Part shown: positions 2,391 through 28,343 of the stretch, in pieces
Position numbering within the stretch: the stretch's first letter is position 1
Layout: each line of letters opens with the position of its first letter
The notes under the pieces: generated by a model
Told to the model about the DNA's origin: nothing
Databases searched by the model: none
The model's input: the letters and a program-made list of their open reading frames with translations, nothing else
From: Candidatus Doudnabacteria bacterium RIFCSPHIGHO2_02_FULL_46_11
Lineage (GTDB): Bacteria; Patescibacteriota; Doudnabacteria; UBA920; 2-02-FULL-46-11
Direction: 5' to 3'
Length of the DNA: 35,117 bases
Assembly (NCBI GenBank): GCA_001779955.1
Contig: MFES01000003.1
Location: forward strand, 11,348-46,464
Translations under genes and position numbers: made by a program

Positions 2391-3473
2391 TTACTTCTTG
2401 ACCGCTGGCGCCGGCGTGGCACCCACGGCCTTGGCGACGCCTGCCTTCACGCCGTTGAAGAACACCTCGCCGCGGCGCTTGAAAAAGCCGCGGATGTAAG
2501 CGTCGTTCCTTGAGGCGTGGAGCTCGGGAACAACGCTGTCCGGGTTCTCCGCCGGCCAGTTGCCGTACCAGGCGAGCATGATCGTGGTGCTGTCGAACGG
2601 GGCGATATCGCGCCGATACTCCCAGTTCAACAGGTAGCGATCCAACAACGCCCGATCCACCTGCCCCGCCAAGACACCAGCGAAAACGCCAATGCCCTGG
2701 GCCGCGACCGGTTTGGATACTGCCGGAAGGCGGTCGTACCAGGTGGCCCACTTCTGATACTTGTAAGCCACCTCCATCGCCTGGTCTTGGGCATTGACCG
2801 CCTTCATTCCCCCGATGCGCCGCAAATTGTCGCGCATCGAGATCACCACGGGCTCGAGCTTTTCGAGGGCCGGCAGATGCGGGGCATACATTGAGTCCGT
2901 CGGGATCTCGGCGGTTTCGCCGAACCTGGCTCCAGCCACCAGTCCCTCGCCCCAGACACTCCGCTCGATCTCCCATTGCACCGAGTCGGGCAGGTCCTTC
3001 ATCGCGATCTTCTCGCGGAATGTGAGCCCTTCGATCACCGCGCTGCGCTGGACGATCGTCGTGTCCGTCAGCTCGTCGCGGAACACGTCTCGGGCCACCG
3101 TGTAGCGCCCGAACTGCCAGTCCTCGCAGTGGCGATCCGTGAGCGAGTTCAGCTCGACGATCTTGTCGCGCAGCTGCTCGGAGGTCACTCGGATGAAGCA
3201 GTCACCCATCTGGAGCAGCACCGAACTGCCATCAAGCGCAACCTCGAGCACGTACTGCCGCGAGGGATAGAGCATCGCCACGGTCCCGGTTCGGTAATTC
3301 CTGAACGAAGTGTTCTCGGAAACCACGAGTCCCTTGCCCGGAGCGGGCTTGGGGATGGCTCCCGACGCCGGGACTGACTTCTCGGGCGCGGCGTCATCGC
3401 CGTTCGCTGCGCCGCAGCCCATCAAGATGATGGCCAGCGCCAACGAACCGAACAACTTGTGCATGCGTGTCAT
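2391..3473 (-). CDS. orphan lipoprotein (360 aa), high GC
   Basis: Signal peptide plus lipobox (LAIILMGC). ATG is preceded by AAGGGGGGACA. Roughly 60-65% GC by eye, with the many spurious overlapping ORFs typical of high-GC coding DNA. No family recognised. Confidence 0.7.
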   Translation of the reverse strand: MTRMHKLFGSLALAIILMGCGAANGDDAAPEKSVPASGAIPKPAPGKGLVVSENTSFRNYRTGTVAMLYPSRQYVLEVALDGSSVLLQMGDCFIRVTSEQLRDKIVELNSLTDRHCEDWQFGRYTVARDVFRDELTDTTIVQRSAVIEGLTFREKIAMKDLPDSVQWEIERSVWGEGLVAGARFGETAEIPTDSMYAPHLPALEKLEPVVISMRDNLRRIGGMKAVNAQDQAMEVAYKYQKWATWYDRLPAVSKPVAAQGIGVFAGVLAGQVDRALLDRYLLNWEYRRDIAPFDSTTIMLAWYGNWPAENPDSVVPELHASRNDAYIRGFFKRRGEVFFNGVKAGVAKAVGATPAPAVKK

Positions 3474-3707
3474 TGTCCCCCCTTTGTGATGGCGCCTGCC
3501 TCATGCAGTCGCCTTGTGTTGTGTACTTTACTTCTCCCGAATGGGCTTTAATCTGCACCCTCTTGCAAACTTAAGCCCATTTAGGAGATTTTGGGTATTT
3601 TAGCACAAATTACCTCTCTTGTCAATCATAAACCGAACTCTCTTTACTCCCTAAAAAACAAGCGGTTTTGGAGAAATTTAGCCCAGTTAATGTATACTTA
3701 AAGCAAT

Positions 3708-6284
3708 ATGGCCCAAAAAGAGCTTGCCAAGGCCTATAACCCGACCGAAGCCGAAGAACGAATATATAAACTCTGGGAAGAGTCTGGTTTTTTTAATCCC
3801 GACAACCTGCCTGACGCCAAAAAACGCGAACCTTTTACCATTATCATGCCGCCGCCCAACGCCAACGCTCCCCTCCATGTTGGCCATGCTTTGTTTTTAA
3901 CGATTGAAGATATTTTGATTCGTTTTAACCGCATGCAAGGCCGTCGCGCACTGTGGCTGCCCGGTTCAGACCATGCCGGTTTCGAGACACAGGTAGTATT
4001 CGAAAAAAAACTGGAAAAAGAAGGCCGCTCGCGATTCAAAATGGAGCGCAAGGAATTGTACAAAGAAATTTGGGATTTCGTTCAAAACAACAAACACATC
4101 AGCGAGCAAGGTATTAAGCGCATGGGATCTTCCTGCGACTGGTCGCGCAATACCTTCACTCTGGATCCAGCAATAATAGAAATCGTCTACGAAACTTTCG
4201 AGCAAATGTACAAAGACGGTTTAGTATATCGCGGCCAAAGAATTTCCAATTGGTGTATCAAGCATCAAACGAGCCTTTCTGATTTGGAAACAAAATACGA
4301 AGAACGAAGCGAGCCTCTTTACTATTTAAAGTACGGTCCTTTTACAATTGCTACGGCCAGACCCGAAACAAAGTTTGGCGATAAATATGTAGTTATGCAT
4401 CCGGAAGATAAACGATATACCCAATATAAGCACGGCGACAAAATTGAAGTTGAATGGATAAACGGAAAAATTACAGCCACAATTATAAAAGACGAAGCCA
4501 TTGACCAGGAATTCGGTACAGGGGTTATGACTATTACCCCTTGGCATGATCCGATTGACTTTGAAATTGCGCAAAGGCACGGTTTAGATAAGGAACAAAT
4601 TATTGATAAATTAGGCAGGCTTCTGCCAGTTGCTGGCGAATTTCAAGATATGAAAATAAAAGAAGCCCGCCCCTTGATTGTCGAGAAACTAAAAACTAAA
4701 AGCCTGCTCGAAAAAGTTGATGAAGATTACAAACACAACGTCCAGCTTTGCTATAAATGCAATAGCGTAATTGAACCGCAGATTATACCGCAATGGTTCG
4801 TGGCTATGACTAAGAGTTTGAAAGATGGCCGACCATCACTAAGGGATATGGCATTGCAAGCCACAGAAAACAATGAAGTGAAAATTATCCCGGAACGATT
4901 TGAAAAAGTATATACACACTGGATGCAAAATCTGCGTGATTGGGCAATAAGCCGCCAAATTGCCTGGGGCATTCCTTTTCCGGTTTGGTACTGTAATGTC
5001 GAAAGGGCAAATATGCCGCGCATACATTTTGCAGATTTTACGGTTGAGCAAGTCTTAAATGGAAAAACAAAAACTTACCGCCTAAAAAATAAAGGCCACA
5101 ACATTAGTGATAAAGTTAGACTGGTAAATAAAACTACGCAAGAAGTTTTTGGCTATGCCACTATTACCAATGTAGAAATTAAAAAAATAAAGGATATTGA
5201 TCTTAGTGATAAAGCTCATTACTCCACTTACAAAAATCTGGACGAACTGCTGGTAGCTTTCAAAAGACACTACCCGCCGGACCAAAAAATTGATGGCGAA
5301 ACAGAAAGCTACATTTACGACTACGCTTTCGAGGCGTTATCGCCGGAAAATACAAAAGACGGTTGCGGCCAAATAATAATATCCGGCGAAGCGCCTAAAA
5401 AATGTCCGGTTTGTAAAAACAAAAATTTAACGCAAGATCCTGATACTTTTGATACCTGGTTTTCATCCGGACAATGGCCGTATGCCACGCTAATGGCTCA
5501 AGGTAAAAAGGATTTCGAAACTTACTACCCTACACAAGTAATGGAAACGGGTTGGGATATTCTCTTTTTCTGGGTGGCGCGGATGATAATGTTCGGGATT
5601 TACAAAACCGGACAAAAACCTTTTAGCACAGTATTTTTGCATGGTATTGTCCGCGATAAAGATCGTCAAAAAATGAGTAAGAGTAAGGGCAATGTGGTTG
5701 ACCCTTTGGGCGTAATTGATACTTACGGTACCGATGCCTTACGCTTTGCTCTTATATTCTCTACTTCAGCCGGCACCGATATTCCATTGTCAGAAGATAA
5801 GGTAAAAGGCATGAAACACTTTGCCAATAAAGTTTGGAACATAGCCAGATTTGTGTTAACCAATCTGGAAAAATCAAAAAACAAAAAACAAAAAACAAAA
5901 TTACAACCTAAAACTGAAAACGATAAAAAAATATTAGAACAGTTGGAACAAACGATAAAGGAAGTGACGAACAATTTGGAAAACTTCCGCTTGCACGAGG
6001 CCGCCCAAAGCATTTACCAGTTTACCTGGCGCGATTTTGCCGATGTTTATATTGAAGCCAGCAAAAAACAACTGTCCAATTCCATGGAATTGGACAGTGG
6101 AAAATCCTCCGCCGCCAAGACCTCGGCGGAGCTTCGGGAAAACACGCAAAGAATTCTTCTTTACTGCCTGCAAAATATTCTGAAATTGCTCCATCCTTTT
6201 ATGCCGTTTGTCACCGAAGAAATCTGGCAACAAATGGAAAACGAACAGTTGTTAATGGTAGAAACCTGGCCCCGACTTCGCTAA
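3708..6284 (+). CDS. valS: valine--tRNA ligase (ValRS)
   Basis: HIGH box (PLHVGHAL), KMSKS box, CP1 editing-domain motifs (TARPETKFGD, GTGVMTITPWHDPIDFE), DTWFSSGQWP, and LHPFMPFVTEEIWQ in the anticodon-binding domain. Confidence 0.97.
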   Translation: MAQKELAKAYNPTEAEERIYKLWEESGFFNPDNLPDAKKREPFTIIMPPPNANAPLHVGHALFLTIEDILIRFNRMQGRRALWLPGSDHAGFETQVVFEKKLEKEGRSRFKMERKELYKEIWDFVQNNKHISEQGIKRMGSSCDWSRNTFTLDPAIIEIVYETFEQMYKDGLVYRGQRISNWCIKHQTSLSDLETKYEERSEPLYYLKYGPFTIATARPETKFGDKYVVMHPEDKRYTQYKHGDKIEVEWINGKITATIIKDEAIDQEFGTGVMTITPWHDPIDFEIAQRHGLDKEQIIDKLGRLLPVAGEFQDMKIKEARPLIVEKLKTKSLLEKVDEDYKHNVQLCYKCNSVIEPQIIPQWFVAMTKSLKDGRPSLRDMALQATENNEVKIIPERFEKVYTHWMQNLRDWAISRQIAWGIPFPVWYCNVERANMPRIHFADFTVEQVLNGKTKTYRLKNKGHNISDKVRLVNKTTQEVFGYATITNVEIKKIKDIDLSDKAHYSTYKNLDELLVAFKRHYPPDQKIDGETESYIYDYAFEALSPENTKDGCGQIIISGEAPKKCPVCKNKNLTQDPDTFDTWFSSGQWPYATLMAQGKKDFETYYPTQVMETGWDILFFWVARMIMFGIYKTGQKPFSTVFLHGIVRDKDRQKMSKSKGNVVDPLGVIDTYGTDALRFALIFSTSAGTDIPLSEDKVKGMKHFANKVWNIARFVLTNLEKSKNKKQKTKLQPKTENDKKILEQLEQTIKEVTNNLENFRLHEAAQSIYQFTWRDFADVYIEASKKQLSNSMELDSGKSSAAKTSAELRENTQRILLYCLQNILKLLHPFMPFVTEEIWQQMENEQLLMVETWPRLR
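5019..5342 (+). other. ASCH/PUA-like (YqfB-like) domain inserted within ValRS (aa ~438-545)
   Basis: IHFADFTVEQVLNGKTKTYRLKN..SDKVRLVN..VFGYATITNVEIKKIKDIDLSDKAH..NLDELLVAFKRHYPP..YIYDYAFE matches my recalled E. coli YqfB pattern ([27 protein letters not shown]..). It lies between Cys429 and Cys553. Confidence 0.6.
6073..6131. repeat. in-frame palindromic insertion in valS: a 24-bp perfect palindrome plus an 8-bp-stem GC hairpin
   Basis: TGTCCAATTCCATGGAATTGGACA (6073-6096) is a perfect palindrome. CTCCGCCG (6107-6114) pairs with CGGCGGAG (6124-6131). Encodes about 13 residues absent from E. coli ValRS at this position. Confidence 0.6.
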
Positions 6285-8968: not shown

Positions 8969-9008
8969 TTATCACACTTTCCTCCGATCGGAGGCAATTG
9001 TGATAATA
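8969..9008. repeat. 38-40 bp nested palindromic element TTATCACACTTTCCTCCGATCGGAGGCAATTGTGATAA
   Basis: Outer arms TTATCACA/TGTGATAA and inner palindrome CCTCCGATCGGAGG. Second copy at 20835-20872, third inside tsaD. Confidence 0.75.
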
Positions 9009-9670: not shown

Positions 9671-9825
9671 AAACCTCAAACATCAATCTTCAACCCTCAA
9701 ACAATCTTCAAACTTCAATTATCAATTCCGGAAATTGCCAGCCCGCTTGGACTTCGTCCAGGCGAAGTCTGGCGGGGGGTTTGGGGATTGAAGCTTTATT
9801 GGAGTTTGAGTGTTGAAGTTTGAAC
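9671..9825. repeat. CTTCAA/TTGAAG long-hairpin element, copy R1 (basic form)
   Basis: Left arm AAACCTCAAACATCAATCTTCAACCCTCAA, right arm TTGGAGTTTGAGTGTTGAAGTTTGAAC, GC hairpin core GACTTCG-TCCAGG-CGAAGTC. About 90% identical to 25641-25925 once two insertions are removed. Confidence 0.75.
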
Positions 9826-9827
9826 AT

Positions 9828-11171
9828 TTACTCGGTACCCCGAGTTCCCATTCCTGTATCGCTTTCGGTGTCTGCTACATTTTCCGCATCCGGTGTCATG
9901 CCTTCTGAAGCAACCACATCGGCTTCAGCCATCATCGGCTGATCGTCCGAGGCCTCATCTTGCTTGGCCTCTTCCTTGCTCTCAACCGTATCAGCGGCAT
10001 CTTTTTCTATTGTCTCGCCTTCTGTCGTTTCTTCCTCCGGCGGTGAATCGGGCGCCTCTTCTATTTCATCCGGGCTGGCCGTGGCCGCGGTTTCAGTTTC
10101 TTCCAATGCGCCGCCATCGCCCAGTTTCTCCCCGATTATATCTATTTTCCAGCCGGTAAGACGCGCGGCCAAACGCACATTCTGCCCGGCCCGACCGATA
10201 GCCAAACTCAATTGGTCTTCCAAAACTCCCACCCGGGTCTCTTTTTCATCCTCGTTAAGCTGGACGTTTATAATTTTTGCCGGAGACAAAGAATTGCTGA
10301 TAAATTTAACAGGATCGTCGGACCATTCGATAATATCCACCTTTTCTCCGCCGAGTTCGGCCATAATTGTCTGTACGCGCGTGCCGCGCTGGCCCACGCA
10401 GGCGCCGATCGGGTCAACGCCTTCCTGGTTGGAAAATACCGCGACTTTGCTGCGGGATCCGGCTTCGCGGGCAATGGCTTTAATTTCTACGGTACCGGCA
10501 TAAATTTCCGGAACTTCAAGTTCAAAAAGTCGGCGCACGATGTCGGCATGCGAACGGGAAAGTGTAATTTTCGGGCCCTTGGCCGTTGGTTCAACGTGCA
10601 AAACTAAAACCTTCAAGCGTTGGCTAATGCGGTAATTTTCACCCTTAATCTGTTCAGACGGAAACAAAACGCCCGTAGCCTTGCCCATATCCACGAGAAC
10701 GGCATTGCCTTCAAGCCGTTGAACGACGCCGTTAACAATGGTGCGTTCGCGCGACTTAAATTCAGTAAACATGGCATTGCGTTCAGCCTCGCGAAGCCTT
10801 TGCATAATAACCTGCTTGGCGGTTTGGGCGGCAATGCGGCCAAAGTGCGTGCCGTCGGCTGGAGTAATTTCGGTTCGGATCTCGCCATCCATTTCAATAT
10901 CAGGATTTATTTTCTTGCCTTCTTCAAGGGTAATGTATTTAGAAGGCTCTTTTTCCAAAAGTTCAGCATCCTCGGTTATTGTCTTTACGTCAAAAACGCG
11001 GCTGTCTAAAGTCACCGGGTCAAATTCAACTACCGGATTTTGCTCGCGGGTGGCGTAGTCTTTACGAAAAGCAGCGGCTAAAGCCACCTCAATCATTTTA
11101 ATAATTTCTTCCTTGGGTATGCCCTTTTCGTCCGCAATTTGGGTAAGGGCTAAATCAAACTCACTTGGCAT
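9828..11171 (-). CDS. nusA: transcription termination/antitermination factor NusA with an acidic C-terminal tail
   Basis: The N-terminus (ALTQIADEKGIPKEEII..ALAAAFRKDY) plus S1 and two KH regions (GACVGQRGTRVQ, AIGRAGQNVRLAARLTGWKIDI). Confidence 0.95.
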   Translation of the reverse strand: MPSEFDLALTQIADEKGIPKEEIIKMIEVALAAAFRKDYATREQNPVVEFDPVTLDSRVFDVKTITEDAELLEKEPSKYITLEEGKKINPDIEMDGEIRTEITPADGTHFGRIAAQTAKQVIMQRLREAERNAMFTEFKSRERTIVNGVVQRLEGNAVLVDMGKATGVLFPSEQIKGENYRISQRLKVLVLHVEPTAKGPKITLSRSHADIVRRLFELEVPEIYAGTVEIKAIAREAGSRSKVAVFSNQEGVDPIGACVGQRGTRVQTIMAELGGEKVDIIEWSDDPVKFISNSLSPAKIINVQLNEDEKETRVGVLEDQLSLAIGRAGQNVRLAARLTGWKIDIIGEKLGDGGALEETETAATASPDEIEEAPDSPPEEETTEGETIEKDAADTVESKEEAKQDEASDDQPMMAEADVVASEGMTPDAENVADTESDTGMGTRGTE

Positions 11172-11777: not shown

Positions 11778-12161
11778 CTATTTTAAATATTTTTGCTTGG
11801 TTTGCTGATTGTGAAAACCCGCTATTTCCTTTGAATAATCACGCACCCAGTAAATAACTAGCTTGATTAGCCAAATCGTCGCCACCAAAGCCAAAACCAC
11901 GGACCAAAACCGCCATTCCAAATAGGCCGCGCCTTCGTAGCGGAAAACCGTCCACAACAGGCCAATGAGACCATAGGTTAGGCATAGGTTTCTAAACCTA
12001 CGCACGAGCTTCCTGCTTACCGGATTCATGGTCTTCAGGAAAAGCAAGGCGACTAAAATAATTCCCAAAATTACGGCGCCGGCAGCGTCGTAAAAAAAGA
12101 TATTGTCCCAAATCTCTAAACGCAGCGGATACGGGCCAAAAAGAAATGTTTGCATATCCAT
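11778..12161 (-). CDS. small integral membrane protein (3 predicted TM helices), hypothetical
   Basis: 127-aa ORF with hydrophobic stretches. Its stop lies 3 nt upstream of the yraN start. No family recognised. Confidence 0.6.
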   Translation of the reverse strand: MDMQTFLFGPYPLRLEIWDNIFFYDAAGAVILGIILVALLFLKTMNPVSRKLVRRFRNLCLTYGLIGLLWTVFRYEGAAYLEWRFWSVVLALVATIWLIKLVIYWVRDYSKEIAGFHNQQTKQKYLK

Positions 12162-12369
12162 CCCGTATAGTTACCCCAATAAATCTTTAGGCTTTGTGTT
12201 AAAGCCTAGAAAAATATTGCTTTGTAAGTTAATGCTTAAAATAATCATATTATCTATTCTGCGGCCAAGATTTAGAAGAGTGAATTCTAGAATAAAATAC
12301 GTAATTAAATGCTTGCCCATCTTATTACATTCCACAATACCAGCAGAAGATTGGGGAAGTTATACGGGA
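12161..12369. mobile_element. MITE-like element, M-type (209 bp)
   Basis: TIRs TCCCGTATAGTTACCCCAAT / ATTGGGGAAGTTATACGGGA (17/20 complementary), flanked by TCCA/TCCA. About 70-75% identical by eye, in inverted orientation, to 30638-30990 minus its nested insert. Confidence 0.65.
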
Positions 12370-12385
12370 TCCATGGTGAGTTAAT

Positions 12386-20834: not shown

Positions 20835-20872
20835 TTATCACATTTTCCTCCGATCGGAGGTCGTTGTGATAA
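20835..20872. repeat. second intergenic copy of the TTATCACA..CCTCCGATCGGAGG..TGTGATAA palindromic element
   Basis: TTATCACATTTTCCTCCGATCGGAGGTCGTTGTGATAA. As at 8969-9008, it directly abuts an A-run and a terminator hairpin. Confidence 0.75.
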
Positions 20873-23467: not shown

Positions 23468-23565
23468 AAAACTCCAAACTTCAACCCCCAAGCCTCAAGC
23501 TCTAACCTTCAATATCTGAAGTTTGAATTTTGAAGTTTTGTTGAAAATTGAAGTTTGAGGGTTTA
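23468..23565. repeat. CTTCAA/TTGAAG-type imperfect long hairpin in the trmD-dedA spacer
   Basis: AAACTCCAAACTTCAACCCCCAAGCCTCAAGC.. faces ..TTGAAAATTGAAGTTTGAGGGTTT. Confidence 0.5.
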
Positions 23566-23568
23566 GGA

Positions 23569-25640: not shown

Positions 25641-25925
25641 AAACTTCAATCCTCAATCTTCAACCCTCAAGCAATCTTCCTGCCTGCGCCGAGGCTTCCT
25701 CCTTCGCCCCCTCCTCCGCTAAAGCTGGGCGGGCAGGCAAGGCTTCGGAGGACAGGTCGGCAGGCAGGCAAACTTCAATTATCAATTCCGGAATTGCCAG
25801 CCCGCTTGGGCTCCCGCCTGACTTCGAAAAGACGAAGTCTTGTCGGGCAGGTCGTCCAGGCGAAGTCTGGCGGGGGGTTTGAGGCTTGAAGTTTTAATGG
25901 AGTTTGAGTGTTGAAGTTTGGAGTT
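25641..25925. repeat. CTTCAA/TTGAAG long-hairpin element, copy R2, carrying two nested GC-rich palindromic insertions
   Basis: Colinear with R1 (9671-9825) except for a 90-bp insert at 25680-25769 (ends CCTGCCTGC / GCAGGCAGG) and an insert of about 40 bp near 25809-25852 (GACTTCG-AAAAGA-CGAAGTC core). Confidence 0.75.
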
Positions 25926-25955
25926 TTTGCCTTCCTATTTTATCACTTACTATAC

Positions 25956-25990
25956 TAAAACAAAACCGCCCTTATTATGTGACGGTTTTG
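25956..25990 (-). terminator. intrinsic terminator downstream of the rpsP-KH unit
   Basis: Minus strand reads CAAAACCG-TCACATAATAAGGG-CGGTTTTG-TTTT. Confidence 0.55.
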
Positions 25991-26044
25991 CCTGCCCCGT
26001 ACTAAAGCGCTGGCTTTTAGTACTGGGGTTTAGGTGCAAATTTA

Positions 26045-26187
26045 CCCGGACACCACAACAGCCATAAATTTTTTCGTAATTTGGTGTGACTTAACTAGAT
26101 TTTGCTATATAACCAGCCGACTTATTACCTGTGATTGCTAAACAAAAATTTATCGGACTGGAACACTATGGGTGTTTGGTGTACGGG
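26045..26187. mobile_element. MITE-like element, T-type copy T0 (143 bp), abutting the KH-gene stop codon
   Basis: Arms CCCGGACACCACAACA (left) and TGTTTGGTGTACGGG (right). Its right end is 1 nt from the stop codon at 26189-26191. Flanks TTTA/CTTA match imperfectly. Confidence 0.5.
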
Positions 26188-26188
26188 C

Positions 26189-26539
26189 TTAGAGATTTAT
26201 ATCCAAAGGATCGCCGGATTCTTCGTTGCTTTCTTCTCTGCGCGGAGCTTCCTGCTGATCTCGCTGTGGCCGCGTACCGTGCTCTCTTTCCGGCTCGTAA
26301 ATCTTCAGGTTGACGCGAGCTCGGTTCTTGGCGCCGACAATACGAAGCAGGGTGCGAAGAGCTTTGGCGGTCTGGCCGTTGCGGCCGATAACCTGACCAA
26401 AGTCCTGTGGATTGAGGAAAAGGGTGATAAGCACGCCCATCTCATCAACCTTGCGCTCGGTGCGAACATCCTCCGGATGGTCAACTAAGGCCTTGACCGT
26501 ATACTCGATGAACTGCTGATCGTTTTCCGTTTCTGCCAT
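26189..26539 (-). CDS. KH-domain RNA-binding protein (YlqC/UPF0109-like) with a charged C-terminal tail
   Basis: LVDHPEDV......V.I.L....D.GQVIGRNGQTAKALRTLL pattern, in its conserved position after rpsP. Confidence 0.85.
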   Translation of the reverse strand: MAETENDQQFIEYTVKALVDHPEDVRTERKVDEMGVLITLFLNPQDFGQVIGRNGQTAKALRTLLRIVGAKNRARVNLKIYEPEREHGTRPQRDQQEAPRREESNEESGDPLDINL

Positions 26540-26540
26540 A

Positions 26541-26681
26541 CCCTGTATATCAACCTCGATAATCTTAATGTCTTATAGTTCGACTTGAGATACGAGGTTA
26601 TGATTCTATTCCTACTTATGCCCGTGTAACGTTCGCTAGCCTTTAAGATTAAAGGAGAACTATCGAGGTTGCATAACGGGG
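26541..26681. mobile_element. MITE-like element, K-type (141 bp), abutting the KH-gene start codon
   Basis: TIRs CCCTGTATATCAACCTCGAT / ATCGAGGTTGCATAACGGGG, subterminal stem AATCTTAA/TTAAGATT, flanking CATA/CATA (26537-26540 and 26682-26685). Same ends and size as 30826-30967. Confidence 0.6.
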
Positions 26682-26764
26682 CATATCTTCTAAATGTTGC
26701 TTTTTAAGGACCTTCGACTAGATGGTCTCATTTCTAAAATATCACTAAACAGATTTTTCTTCAA

Positions 26765-27046
26765 CCCGCACACCATAACCGCAATATTGCTCTTCTTAAA
26801 CCATCATAGGTAATAAAATCTTGGTTAGCATAACGGATATTACAGTAATCATCGTTACACAATATCGCAATAGGTACAGGTTTATTGCGGTTTGGTGTCT
26901 GGGTCAACCCGGTACACCACAACTGCAATATCGCTTTACTATAAATCGTCGTAGGTAATGCTAGAACTTATTTCGAGAATTTACGCTAACATGAGCTATT
27001 ATCAATGGCGCAATAGGTACAGATTTATTGCTGTTTGGTGTCCGGG
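26765..27046. repeat. two tandem T-type elements (about 139 bp each, 143-bp period), each flanked by TCAA
   Basis: TCAA at 26761-26764, unit A 26765-26903, TCAA, unit B 26908-27046, TCAA at 27047-27050. Arms ACCCGCACACCATAACCGCAATA / TATTGCGGTTTGGTGTCTGGGT. The right arm of unit B encodes the last 7 codons and the stop of rpsP. Confidence 0.7.
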
Positions 27047-27441
27047 TCAACCGCTGGGGTCTCCTCCGGGGCGGGTGTTTGCTCCGCCGGAGCGGCTTCT
27101 GCAACCGGTCCGCCAGCTGGCGGATTAGTAGCTGCGGCGGGCGTAGCGGCTTCGGCTGGCTTCTCTGATTTCTTTGGCCTCCAAGCTTTAACTTTTACGC
27201 CCTCCTTCACAACTTTATTGGTTACAAACAAATTGTGAACGGTCGCACTGACTTCTACGTTCTGGCCAAGCCAATACTCAAGGCGGGCCTGATCGGAAAT
27301 CTTAAATTCTTTATTGCGCGGGTTATAGTTGCCCAGAATTTCCAGGAACTTCTTTGACGCGGCTTTTGTCTTCTGCGCCAGCACGATGCGGAATTGCGGC
27401 TGATGCTTCTTGCCTATTCTTTGCAGACGGATAATTAACAT
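27025..27441 (-). CDS. rpsP: 30S ribosomal protein S16 with an Ala/Pro-rich C-terminal extension
   Basis: MLIIRLQRIGKKHQPQFRIVLA...LGNYNP core. Confidence 0.95.
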   Translation of the reverse strand: MLIIRLQRIGKKHQPQFRIVLAQKTKAASKKFLEILGNYNPRNKEFKISDQARLEYWLGQNVEVSATVHNLFVTNKVVKEGVKVKAWRPKKSEKPAEAATPAAATNPPAGGPVAEAAPAEQTPAPEETPAVDPDTKQQ

Positions 27442-27608
27442 ACTTAATTTGATAGACTTAATACTTCTAAAATGCTTGATTATATTACAGAAATATCAAA
27501 GGGTTTGTCAATCAGCTCCTTAAATCAACTTTCAGAAGGTAAAAGTAAAAATTCATTTCAAAACTTTTAAATTTTTTAATTGTAATTTTGATTTTTGATT
27601 TTTGATTT

Positions 27609-28220: not shown

Positions 28221-28343
28221 AAATTTTAATCCTCAAAACTCAAACTTCAATCCTCAATAAAACTTCAAACACCAAGCTTCAGTTCTGGACTTGAGATTTG
28301 ATCATTGAGGGTTCCTGGAGGCTCGAGAGTTGAAGTTTGAAGT
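28221..28343. repeat. CTTCAA/TTGAAG-type imperfect long hairpin filling the smc-dedA spacer
   Basis: AATCCTCAAAACTCAAACTTCAATCCTCAA.. faces ..TTGAGGGTTCC..GAGAGTTGAAGTTTGAAGTTT. Confidence 0.5.

Follow-up and report, generated by a model that had tools for sequence, protein, structure and literature searches.

The last codons and the stop codon of rpsP, the gene of ribosomal protein S16, are supplied by a repeat element in Candidatus Doudnabacteria bacterium RIFCSPHIGHO2_02_FULL_46_11, judging from the sequence of a 35,117-nt stretch of contig MFES01000003.1 (GCA_001779955.1). This stretch is referred to as the window, and all coordinates are window positions. Two tandem copies of the element, T-type units A and B, lie between rpsP and the following gene, which encodes a KH-domain (KhpA-like) protein, and a third copy, unit C, lies at the KH stop codon, see Table 1. 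We propose that the T-type units are probably transposable elements of the miniature inverted-repeat kind (MITEs), i.e., non-autonomous elements mobilised by a cut-or-copy DDE-type transposase, and that one of them replaced the original end of S16.

Table 1. Features of the rpsP-KH region, in window positions.
Feature	Positions	Strand	Remarks
Promoter-like site upstream of rpsP	27482-27511	-	TTGACA-18-TAATAT, 10/12 matches; consensus match only
rpsP (ribosomal protein S16)	27025-27441	-	Open reading frame (ORF), 138 aa; Pfam PF00886; 370 homologues
TCAA copy 1 (sense TTGA)	27047-27050	.	Within rpsP codons GTT GAC; proposed target-site duplication
T-type unit B	26908-27046	-	139 bp; sense 5' arm 27025-27046, 3' arm 26908-26930
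TCAA copy 2	26904-26907	.	Between unit A and unit B
T-type unit A	26765-26903	-	139 bp; orientation as B; arms 26882-26903 and 26765-26786
TCAA copy 3	26761-26764	.	Distal end of the array
Displaced ancestral rpsP tail	26745-26760	-	With one TTGA: GTT GAA GAA AAA TCT GTT TAG (VEEKSV-stop)
K-type hairpin element	26540-26684	-	Other family; arms ACCCTGTATATCAACCTCGATA / TATCGAGGTTGCATAACGGGG; abuts the KH start codon
KH-domain (KhpA-like) gene	26189-26539	-	116 aa; PF13083; orthologues in relatives
T-type unit C	26045-26187	-	143 bp; oriented as A and B; with flanks 26041-26191
Intrinsic-terminator-like hairpin and U-run of the rpsP-KH unit	25956-25989	-	AAAACCGTC..GGCGGTTTTGTTTT; by sequence comparison

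Source of the S16 C-terminus

The S16 protein ends in an A/P/E-rich extension, ..PAVDPDTKQQ-stop. Its final codons, GTT GAC CCG GAC ACC AAA CAG CAA TAA (VDPDTKQQ-stop), are the reverse complement of TCAA plus the arm of unit B, and the arm alone codes (C)CG GAC ACC AAA CAG CAA TAA, i.e., PDTKQQ and the stop. The predicted tail peptide reads ..ETPAVDPDTKQQ. Unit A carries a near-copy, CCA GAC ACC AAA CCG CAA TAA, which is not used. When units B and A are excised in silico and a single TTGA is kept, the frame continues as ..GCG GTT GAA GAA AAA TCT GTT TAG, and the protein would end ..ETPAVEEKSV-stop.

Even the closest S16 relatives are merely 67-73% identical. Their ends are ..EPEPAVE-stop (P0004), ..PAEEAKSE-stop (P0003, encoded by GAG GAA GCT AAA TCT GAA TAA) and ..AEEKEVENV-stop (P0002). 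The excised tail EEKSV-stop is like these, which indicates that the original end is still recognisable past the array. The present tail, DPDTKQQ-stop, is encoded by the element. This is what an earlier note on this DNA had claimed for the C-terminus and the stop codon, and both the coding arm of unit B and the ancestral end in frame beyond the array bear it out.

At the orthologous sites of six relatives, which are 53-73% identical in S16, no T-type element is found. The full gene order SMC-DedA-rpsP-KH-MurA is present at locus L047. At L049 the order is SMC-DedA-rpsP-KH, after which comes an additional DUF218 gene; the contig of P0002 is too short for a comparison of gene order. In four relatives the rpsP-KH spacer is 73, 74, 108 or 140 nt long (73 nt in L006, 74-140 nt in P0002, P0003 and P0004), as compared with 485 nt here (26540-27024). 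The claim that the repeats inflate this junction holds. Most sampled populations probably carry more than the two units described, see below.

The S16 extension is of low complexity, and its end differs in nearly every homologue. The replacement of the tail would have been tolerated because it is located in this poorly conserved region.

The history that we propose is as follows. One copy would have inserted in the TTGA of the codons GTT GAA, five codons before the old rpsP stop, duplicating 4 bp of its target. The 5' arm of the element would then have been read in frame, turning E-E-K-S-V-stop into D-P-D-T-K-Q-Q-stop, and this altered tail would have been fixed. Later the locus would have become a tandem array. 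At least one step would have been slippage, or unequal recombination of homeologous type, involving the 3' arms of A and B; it would yield a chimeric unit, A', and a variable copy number in the population. In a separate event unit C would have inserted into TAAA at the KH stop codon.

Structure and distribution of the T-type elements

The arrangement TCAA-A-TCAA-B-TCAA that the earlier note described is exact in its coordinates, with TCAA at all three junctions, and self-alignment recovers the periodicity it had predicted (143 bp) as a start-to-start spacing of 143-145 nt. Units A and B are 83% identical over the 48 nt of the sense 5' end (~92% in the first 38 nt) and 76% identical in the 3' arm. 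In the interior, the identity is 58% as compared with 52% for shuffled interiors. Tandem Repeats Finder misses the array because the interiors are too diverged. All four arms of A and B fit the pattern TATTGCNGTTN{0,1}TGGTGTN{2,3}GGGT, which has no match in shuffles of the window, and each unit folds into a single long hairpin (-42.2 kcal/mol, z -4.4, for A; -38.5 kcal/mol, z -2.95, for B). The inverted arms of ~22 nt and the diverged interiors noticed earlier are thus confirmed.

Unit C was found by a looser arm search that used 3-mismatch patterns. It begins 1 nt past the KH stop codon and forms a hairpin of -40 kcal/mol (z -4.0). Its flanks, read in sense, are TAAG (26188-26191, holding the KH stop TAA) and TAAA (26041-26044), and its depth is that of a single copy. 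In the relatives the KH gene ends ..TAA AAACAA, directly followed by the intrinsic terminator (AAAACCGCC..GGCGGTTTTGTTTT), and unit C is absent after the KH gene in both loci compared, L047 and L049. The operon terminator is kept in the window downstream of unit C. By this comparison, the operon contains at least two separate sites of T-type insertion, both at the 3' ends of cistrons. A small, perfect-looking palindrome, CCCCGTACTAAAGCGCTGGCTTTTAGTACTGGGG, occupies 25990-26033 between unit C and the terminator and is absent at the orthologous spot of the relatives.

To find the family elsewhere, the exact arm pattern was scanned against one genome per species and the JGI metagenomes. Most matches are chance single arms inside genes, about 11 of 16 in the genomes and about 11 of 22 in the metagenomes; the match in L039, for example, was rejected as a lone arm within the ORF of threonine synthase. 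Three matches in viral contigs are likewise single arms inside coding sequence and were all dismissed as chance. A blastn search of the plasmid sequences with the arm region of 48 nt yielded chance matches alone (E ~1-10). True elements with paired arms are found in two sources besides this organism. The arm search suggested in the earlier note, when run more widely, has thus added a third unit in the window and copies in at least two other genomes.

The first source is L041, a single element with flanks TTTG/TTTG directly past a terminator-like hairpin. Its arms and subterminal sequence are the closest to units A and B, and the 3' arm of A is even nearer to this copy (85% identity) than to B. 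The second source is the metagenome-assembled genome CAZDOL01 together with matching JGI contigs. It has at least five loci with arms CCCCCACACCA(T)AACAGCAATA around an unrelated AT-rich interior, and the flanks are TCAA/TCAA, TTAG/TTAG, TGGG/TGGG and CTTG/CTTG/CTTG. The triple CTTG belongs to L033 (10518-10700), where the order is CTTG, element, CTTG, a 29-nt mini-hairpin, CTTG. The alternation of target duplication and unit may be a property of the family, as it is also seen in this other genome.

The mini-hairpin, CCCCCAC(A/T)ACCTAT(A/G)(C/T)ATAGGTGTGGGGG, has just the outermost bases of the arms in common with the larger element. It is found by itself, nested in full elements, and in tandem behind a full element that has the identical CTTG flank (besides L033, at L009 ~5000-5035, L018 ~1095-1130 and L046 ~5288-5315). 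At L019 5289-5427 an element of the related family adjoins the 3' end of tRNA-Val(GAC) (5426-5499) with a 2-nt overlap. The flanks in L018 are ambiguous owing to C/G runs. Overall, at least six independent copies have perfectly matching 4-nt flanks, each with a chance probability of 1/256.

Nine copies were folded one by one. Their arms are 21-24 nt long, with 17-21 of 21 positions paired. No change is seen in the core ACACCAAAC / GTT(N)TGGTGT, while positions 4, 5, 15 and 18 vary on both arms together, and the consensus of the terminal inverted repeat is CCC(N)(N)ACACCA(N)AACNGCAATA. In every copy one arm has one extra base, which gives the elements a polarity.

These properties are those of MITEs. 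The units in the window are 139-143 bp long, within the limit of ~500 bp for MITEs, and have no coding capacity, with only spurious ORFs of 45-56 aa crossing them. They have terminal inverted repeats and are flanked by a target duplication that is fixed in length, 4 bp, and variable in sequence. Finally, they occupy non-homologous sites, i.e., the rpsP tail, the KH stop and unrelated loci in at least two other genomes. The combination of conserved arms, free interiors and matched but variable 4-bp flanks is characteristic of MITEs that a DDE transposase mobilises. The 4-bp duplication and the CCC ends resemble those of IS1380-like elements, and we do not claim any insertion sequence (IS) family, because no autonomous partner was found.

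Several observations speak against this identification. Strict pattern scans of genome, metagenome and viral collections gave no autonomous element with T-type terminal inverted repeats; inverted arm pairs 0.7-3 kb apart are likewise absent from the collected loci. There is no presence/absence polymorphism, as neither an empty site nor a contig skipping the elements is found in eight metagenomes and five assemblies, and the assemblies differ in copy number only. The covariation of the arms could also reflect selection on the hairpin instead of binding by a transposase, and finding one and the same TCAA at every junction is as compatible with duplication as with re-insertion. The flanks of unit C agree at just three of four positions. 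CAZDOL01 is deposited as 'uncultured Gammaproteobacteria', which is the unconfirmed label of the depositor. In four whole metagenomes, the only contigs with at least 80% similarity to the 52-nt arm region are those of A and B. From this the family appears to be low-copy and perhaps inactive in this organism.

Growth of the array and competing explanations

Identical S16 proteins are encoded on 14 contigs, which come from metagenomes of aquifers, groundwater and soil. Three assemblies have the two-unit form. However, the JGI contig L002 (3300002502, 3329-3685) has the order B, TTGA, A', TTGA, A, where A' is a chimera in which a B-type 3' arm follows the body of A. As no exact run of more than 7 nt is common to the 3' arms of A and B, it is unlikely that A' is a loop made by k-mer assembly. 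Among the Logan contigs, the unitig of the A body (26770-26935) is 2.0-2.9 times as deep as both its flanks in each of six metagenomes (X1-X5 and X8), while the body of B is at single-copy depth. A unitig with the A'-specific junction is found in X1-X4 at a depth similar to that of the A-specific junction, and in X5 and X8 a contig loops with a period of 144 nt.

The chimera and the raised depth of the A body indicate that the array has been enlarged by unequal recombination. The extra units would arise where the 3' arm of A recombines unequally with the homeologous one of B, or by slippage between the two. What the window shows, with its two units, is probably a collapsed or minority form, and a typical genome probably contains B and two or three A-type units. 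These data do not establish the earlier reading, in which elements inserted one after another into one 4-bp target, as the sole growth step observed, A', is recombinational.

How A and B themselves came to lie side by side is a separate question. Their uneven divergence and the position of the A 3' arm, closer to L041 than to B, suggest that they are two different family members that inserted next to each other. It is also quite possible, if somewhat short of probable, that there was only one insertion and that A and B were made in place by tandem duplication of the unit plus TCAA, through unequal crossing-over, slippage or an excised circle re-integrated by homologous recombination. Gene conversion or selection would later have preserved the likeness of the arms, and the interiors would have drifted. 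The identical TCAA at the three junctions, the arm-to-arm recombination seen directly in A', the lack of a close T-type donor copy elsewhere in the four metagenomes and the same layout in L033 all agree with such a duplication. The very uneven divergence between the two ends and the interior does not, neither does the affinity of the A 3' arm to L041, and arms that do not code would not be spared if the units had drifted neutrally in place. This alternative concerns the origin of A and B alone and not the identity of the element.

The identity itself would change if the hairpins were a conserved cis-acting RNA of the rpsP-KH operon, such as 3' stabilisers, RNase III sites or attenuators, and not mobile DNA. 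In the predicted polycistronic RNA, units B, A and the K-type element form three independent and very stable hairpins, units A, B and C are all co-oriented with transcription at the 3' ends of cistrons, and two-sided changes preserve the complementarity of the arms. However, six relatives have no units here and L047 and L049 lack unit C. At unrelated loci, homologous arms enclose unrelated interiors and are flanked by 4-bp direct repeats that vary, the stems do not have G-U pairs favouring one strand, and the element in L016 is antisense to its flanking genes. No terminator-like site or U-run terminator is found in the rpsP-KH spacer. Rfam 15 at the gathering threshold gives only one tRNA in the window, and a search of the region by E-value gives chance-level scores of 18.2 and 12.6 bits as compared with gathering scores of at least 40. 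We consider this explanation improbable.

Still harder to defend is an assignment to REPIN/REP elements or IS200/IS605 palindromes, moved as single strands by a tyrosine (HUH) transposase at a fixed tetranucleotide. The inverted pair of ~22-nt motifs forming a hairpin, the intergenic positions at gene ends and the TCAA at three sites would all fit. Yet the flanks differ between copies (TCAA, TTAG, TGGG, CTTG, TTTG, TAAR) and match within each copy, which indicates a duplication by staggered cut and not a fixed target. REPIN/REP-RAYT systems have an associated RAYT (IS200-like) gene and no target duplication, whereas matching 4-bp direct repeats flank the T-type copies. No RAYT or TnpA gene was noticed near the copies, for which no systematic search was made.

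The last alternative, that a KQQ-stop tail is ancestral to S16 and that the arms were copied from the 3' end of rpsP, is hardly credible, since the arms also occur at loci unrelated to rpsP, an ancestral-like EEKSV-stop is preserved past the array, and such a tail is found in only 1 of ~150 homologues. This single case is P0027 (Candidatus Doudnabacteria, L006 3355-3381, GCA_016182875.1), which ends ..GVDTEQKQQ-stop (GTT GAC ... AAA CAG CAG TAA) with its 73-nt spacer and no element. The local alignment of this tail to the arm scores 22 as compared with 15.4 +/- 2.5 for shuffles, and 9 of 300 shuffles are as good (z ~2.6). In L055, the closest relative of P0027 (78% identity), the homologous DNA AGT TGA CAT CAG CC is in another frame, and other close relatives end ..GVEPQA-stop. 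The weak DNA match and the other frame in L055 also led us to reject the P0027 tail as a relic arm. A tail shared without any repeat would have counted against the origin proposed in the earlier note, and we read this one as a coincidence.

Comparison with known systems and possible effects

The T-type units, regarded as MITEs, have several counterparts among known bacterial elements. QMITE1 and QMITE2 of Coxiella burnetii extend over the last few to ~50 bp of functional genes, and EnhC of the Dugway strain owes its 33 C-terminal residues to a MITE that is in frame; the stable stems of these elements have been discussed as possible RNase III substrates (PMC5896051). Like the T-type, they are small and non-coding, have both direct and terminal inverted repeats, and reach into gene 3' ends. 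The T-type differs in host phylum and in sequence. It has also hit a universal ribosomal protein, with the stop codon supplied by the element, and it forms a tandem array of variable copy number.

The Correia/NEMIS elements of Neisseria and the enterobacterial ERIC/YPAL elements are 100-200 bp long with terminal inverted repeats (24 bp in Correia) and a target duplication, and they form long stem-loop transcripts, co-transcribed with their neighbours and sometimes fused in frame to ORFs (PMC2229807). In these families the duplicated target is TA and the copies number in the tens to hundreds, while the T-type duplicates a variable 4 bp and is low-copy, with at least three units at two sites in 35 kb. 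Rickettsia palindromic elements are also tolerated in frame in conserved protein-coding genes (PMC2229807). Those are, however, internal peptide inserts that are read through, whereas the T-type truncates the protein, replaces its tail and ends translation.

Tandem IS dimers such as (IS30)2, (IS21)2 and the IS911 junctions have abutted ends with a few flank-derived bases between them. The T-type array is similar in being end-spacer-end, where the spacer is the target duplication (TCAA; CTTG in L033). In contrast, IS dimers are intermediates of autonomous elements, no transposase is known for the T-type, and A' points to recombination between arms. The present case is a clear but ordinary instance of a known phenomenon.

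Other repeat families are also present in the window. The K-type family is ~143-147 nt long with arms ACCCTGTRWTAYCAACCTCGATA, and its second copy (30825-30967) is nested in another element. A P-type hairpin family with arms CC(C/T)GTATA(A/G)(C/T)T(T/A)CCCC(A/G)AT is found at 12162-12374 and 30639-30993. An arm abuts a minus-strand ATG in all three elements checked, the K-type at KH and the P-type at SMC and at ORF 11778-12161. This pattern may reflect a target preference for gene starts or a use of the arms as 5' untranslated regions. Several intergenic spacers are filled by heptamer-like repeats in inverted blocks (AAACTTCAATCCTCAA... / ...TTGAGGCTTGAAGTTT), of which some have a GC-rich core (9671-9829, 23469-23566, 25641-25927 and 28228-28341). 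The contig depth over 25650-25930 is 3-10 times single-copy in four metagenomes, so the heptamer-block family is high-copy. A 38-nt palindrome, TTATCACA..CCTCCGATCGGAGG..TGTGATAA, has three copies (1516-1552, 8969-9006 and 20835-20872) and could be a shared terminator or an operator-like site.

The sole strong promoter-like site lies upstream of rpsP. The T-type and K-type elements would be co-transcribed with rpsP and KH as consecutive hairpins of about -40 kcal/mol. In the predicted fold the rpsP stop codon is in a stem and the KH AUG is immediately past the K hairpin. By analogy with the Correia, ERIC and QMITE elements, the array would likeliest have no effect, or cause a modest change in mRNA stability, processing or KH expression.

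It can be speculated, although we think it unlikely, that the T-, K- and P-type hairpins are elements that seek gene boundaries and serve as operon punctuation for the host, with the T-type at 3' ends and the K and P arms at start codons. In this reading T-type copies insert along the direction of transcription at gene ends, as at rpsP and the KH stop here, and at a tRNA 3' end and past a terminator in other genomes. If so, T-type units could be protectors or processing sites of mRNA 3' ends, and the copy number of the rpsP array would tune the S16:KhpA ratio.

A full-text literature search for MITEs together with the candidate phyla radiation (CPR) returned an incidental mention only. The T-type units would document a MITE family in streamlined uncultured groundwater bacteria (Patescibacteria/CPR-like, by their S16 homologues). 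For annotation, repeats should be taken as the source of the S16 tail, of the 485-nt spacer and of the array of two units in this organism's assemblies, with the array probably under-assembled. For the biology of these bacteria, the locus would give a clean before and after of a mobile element that replaces the C-terminal end and the stop of a universal ribosomal protein while the old tail is still readable, and it would indicate that a MITE is able to seed a tandem array of variable copy number within a core operon.

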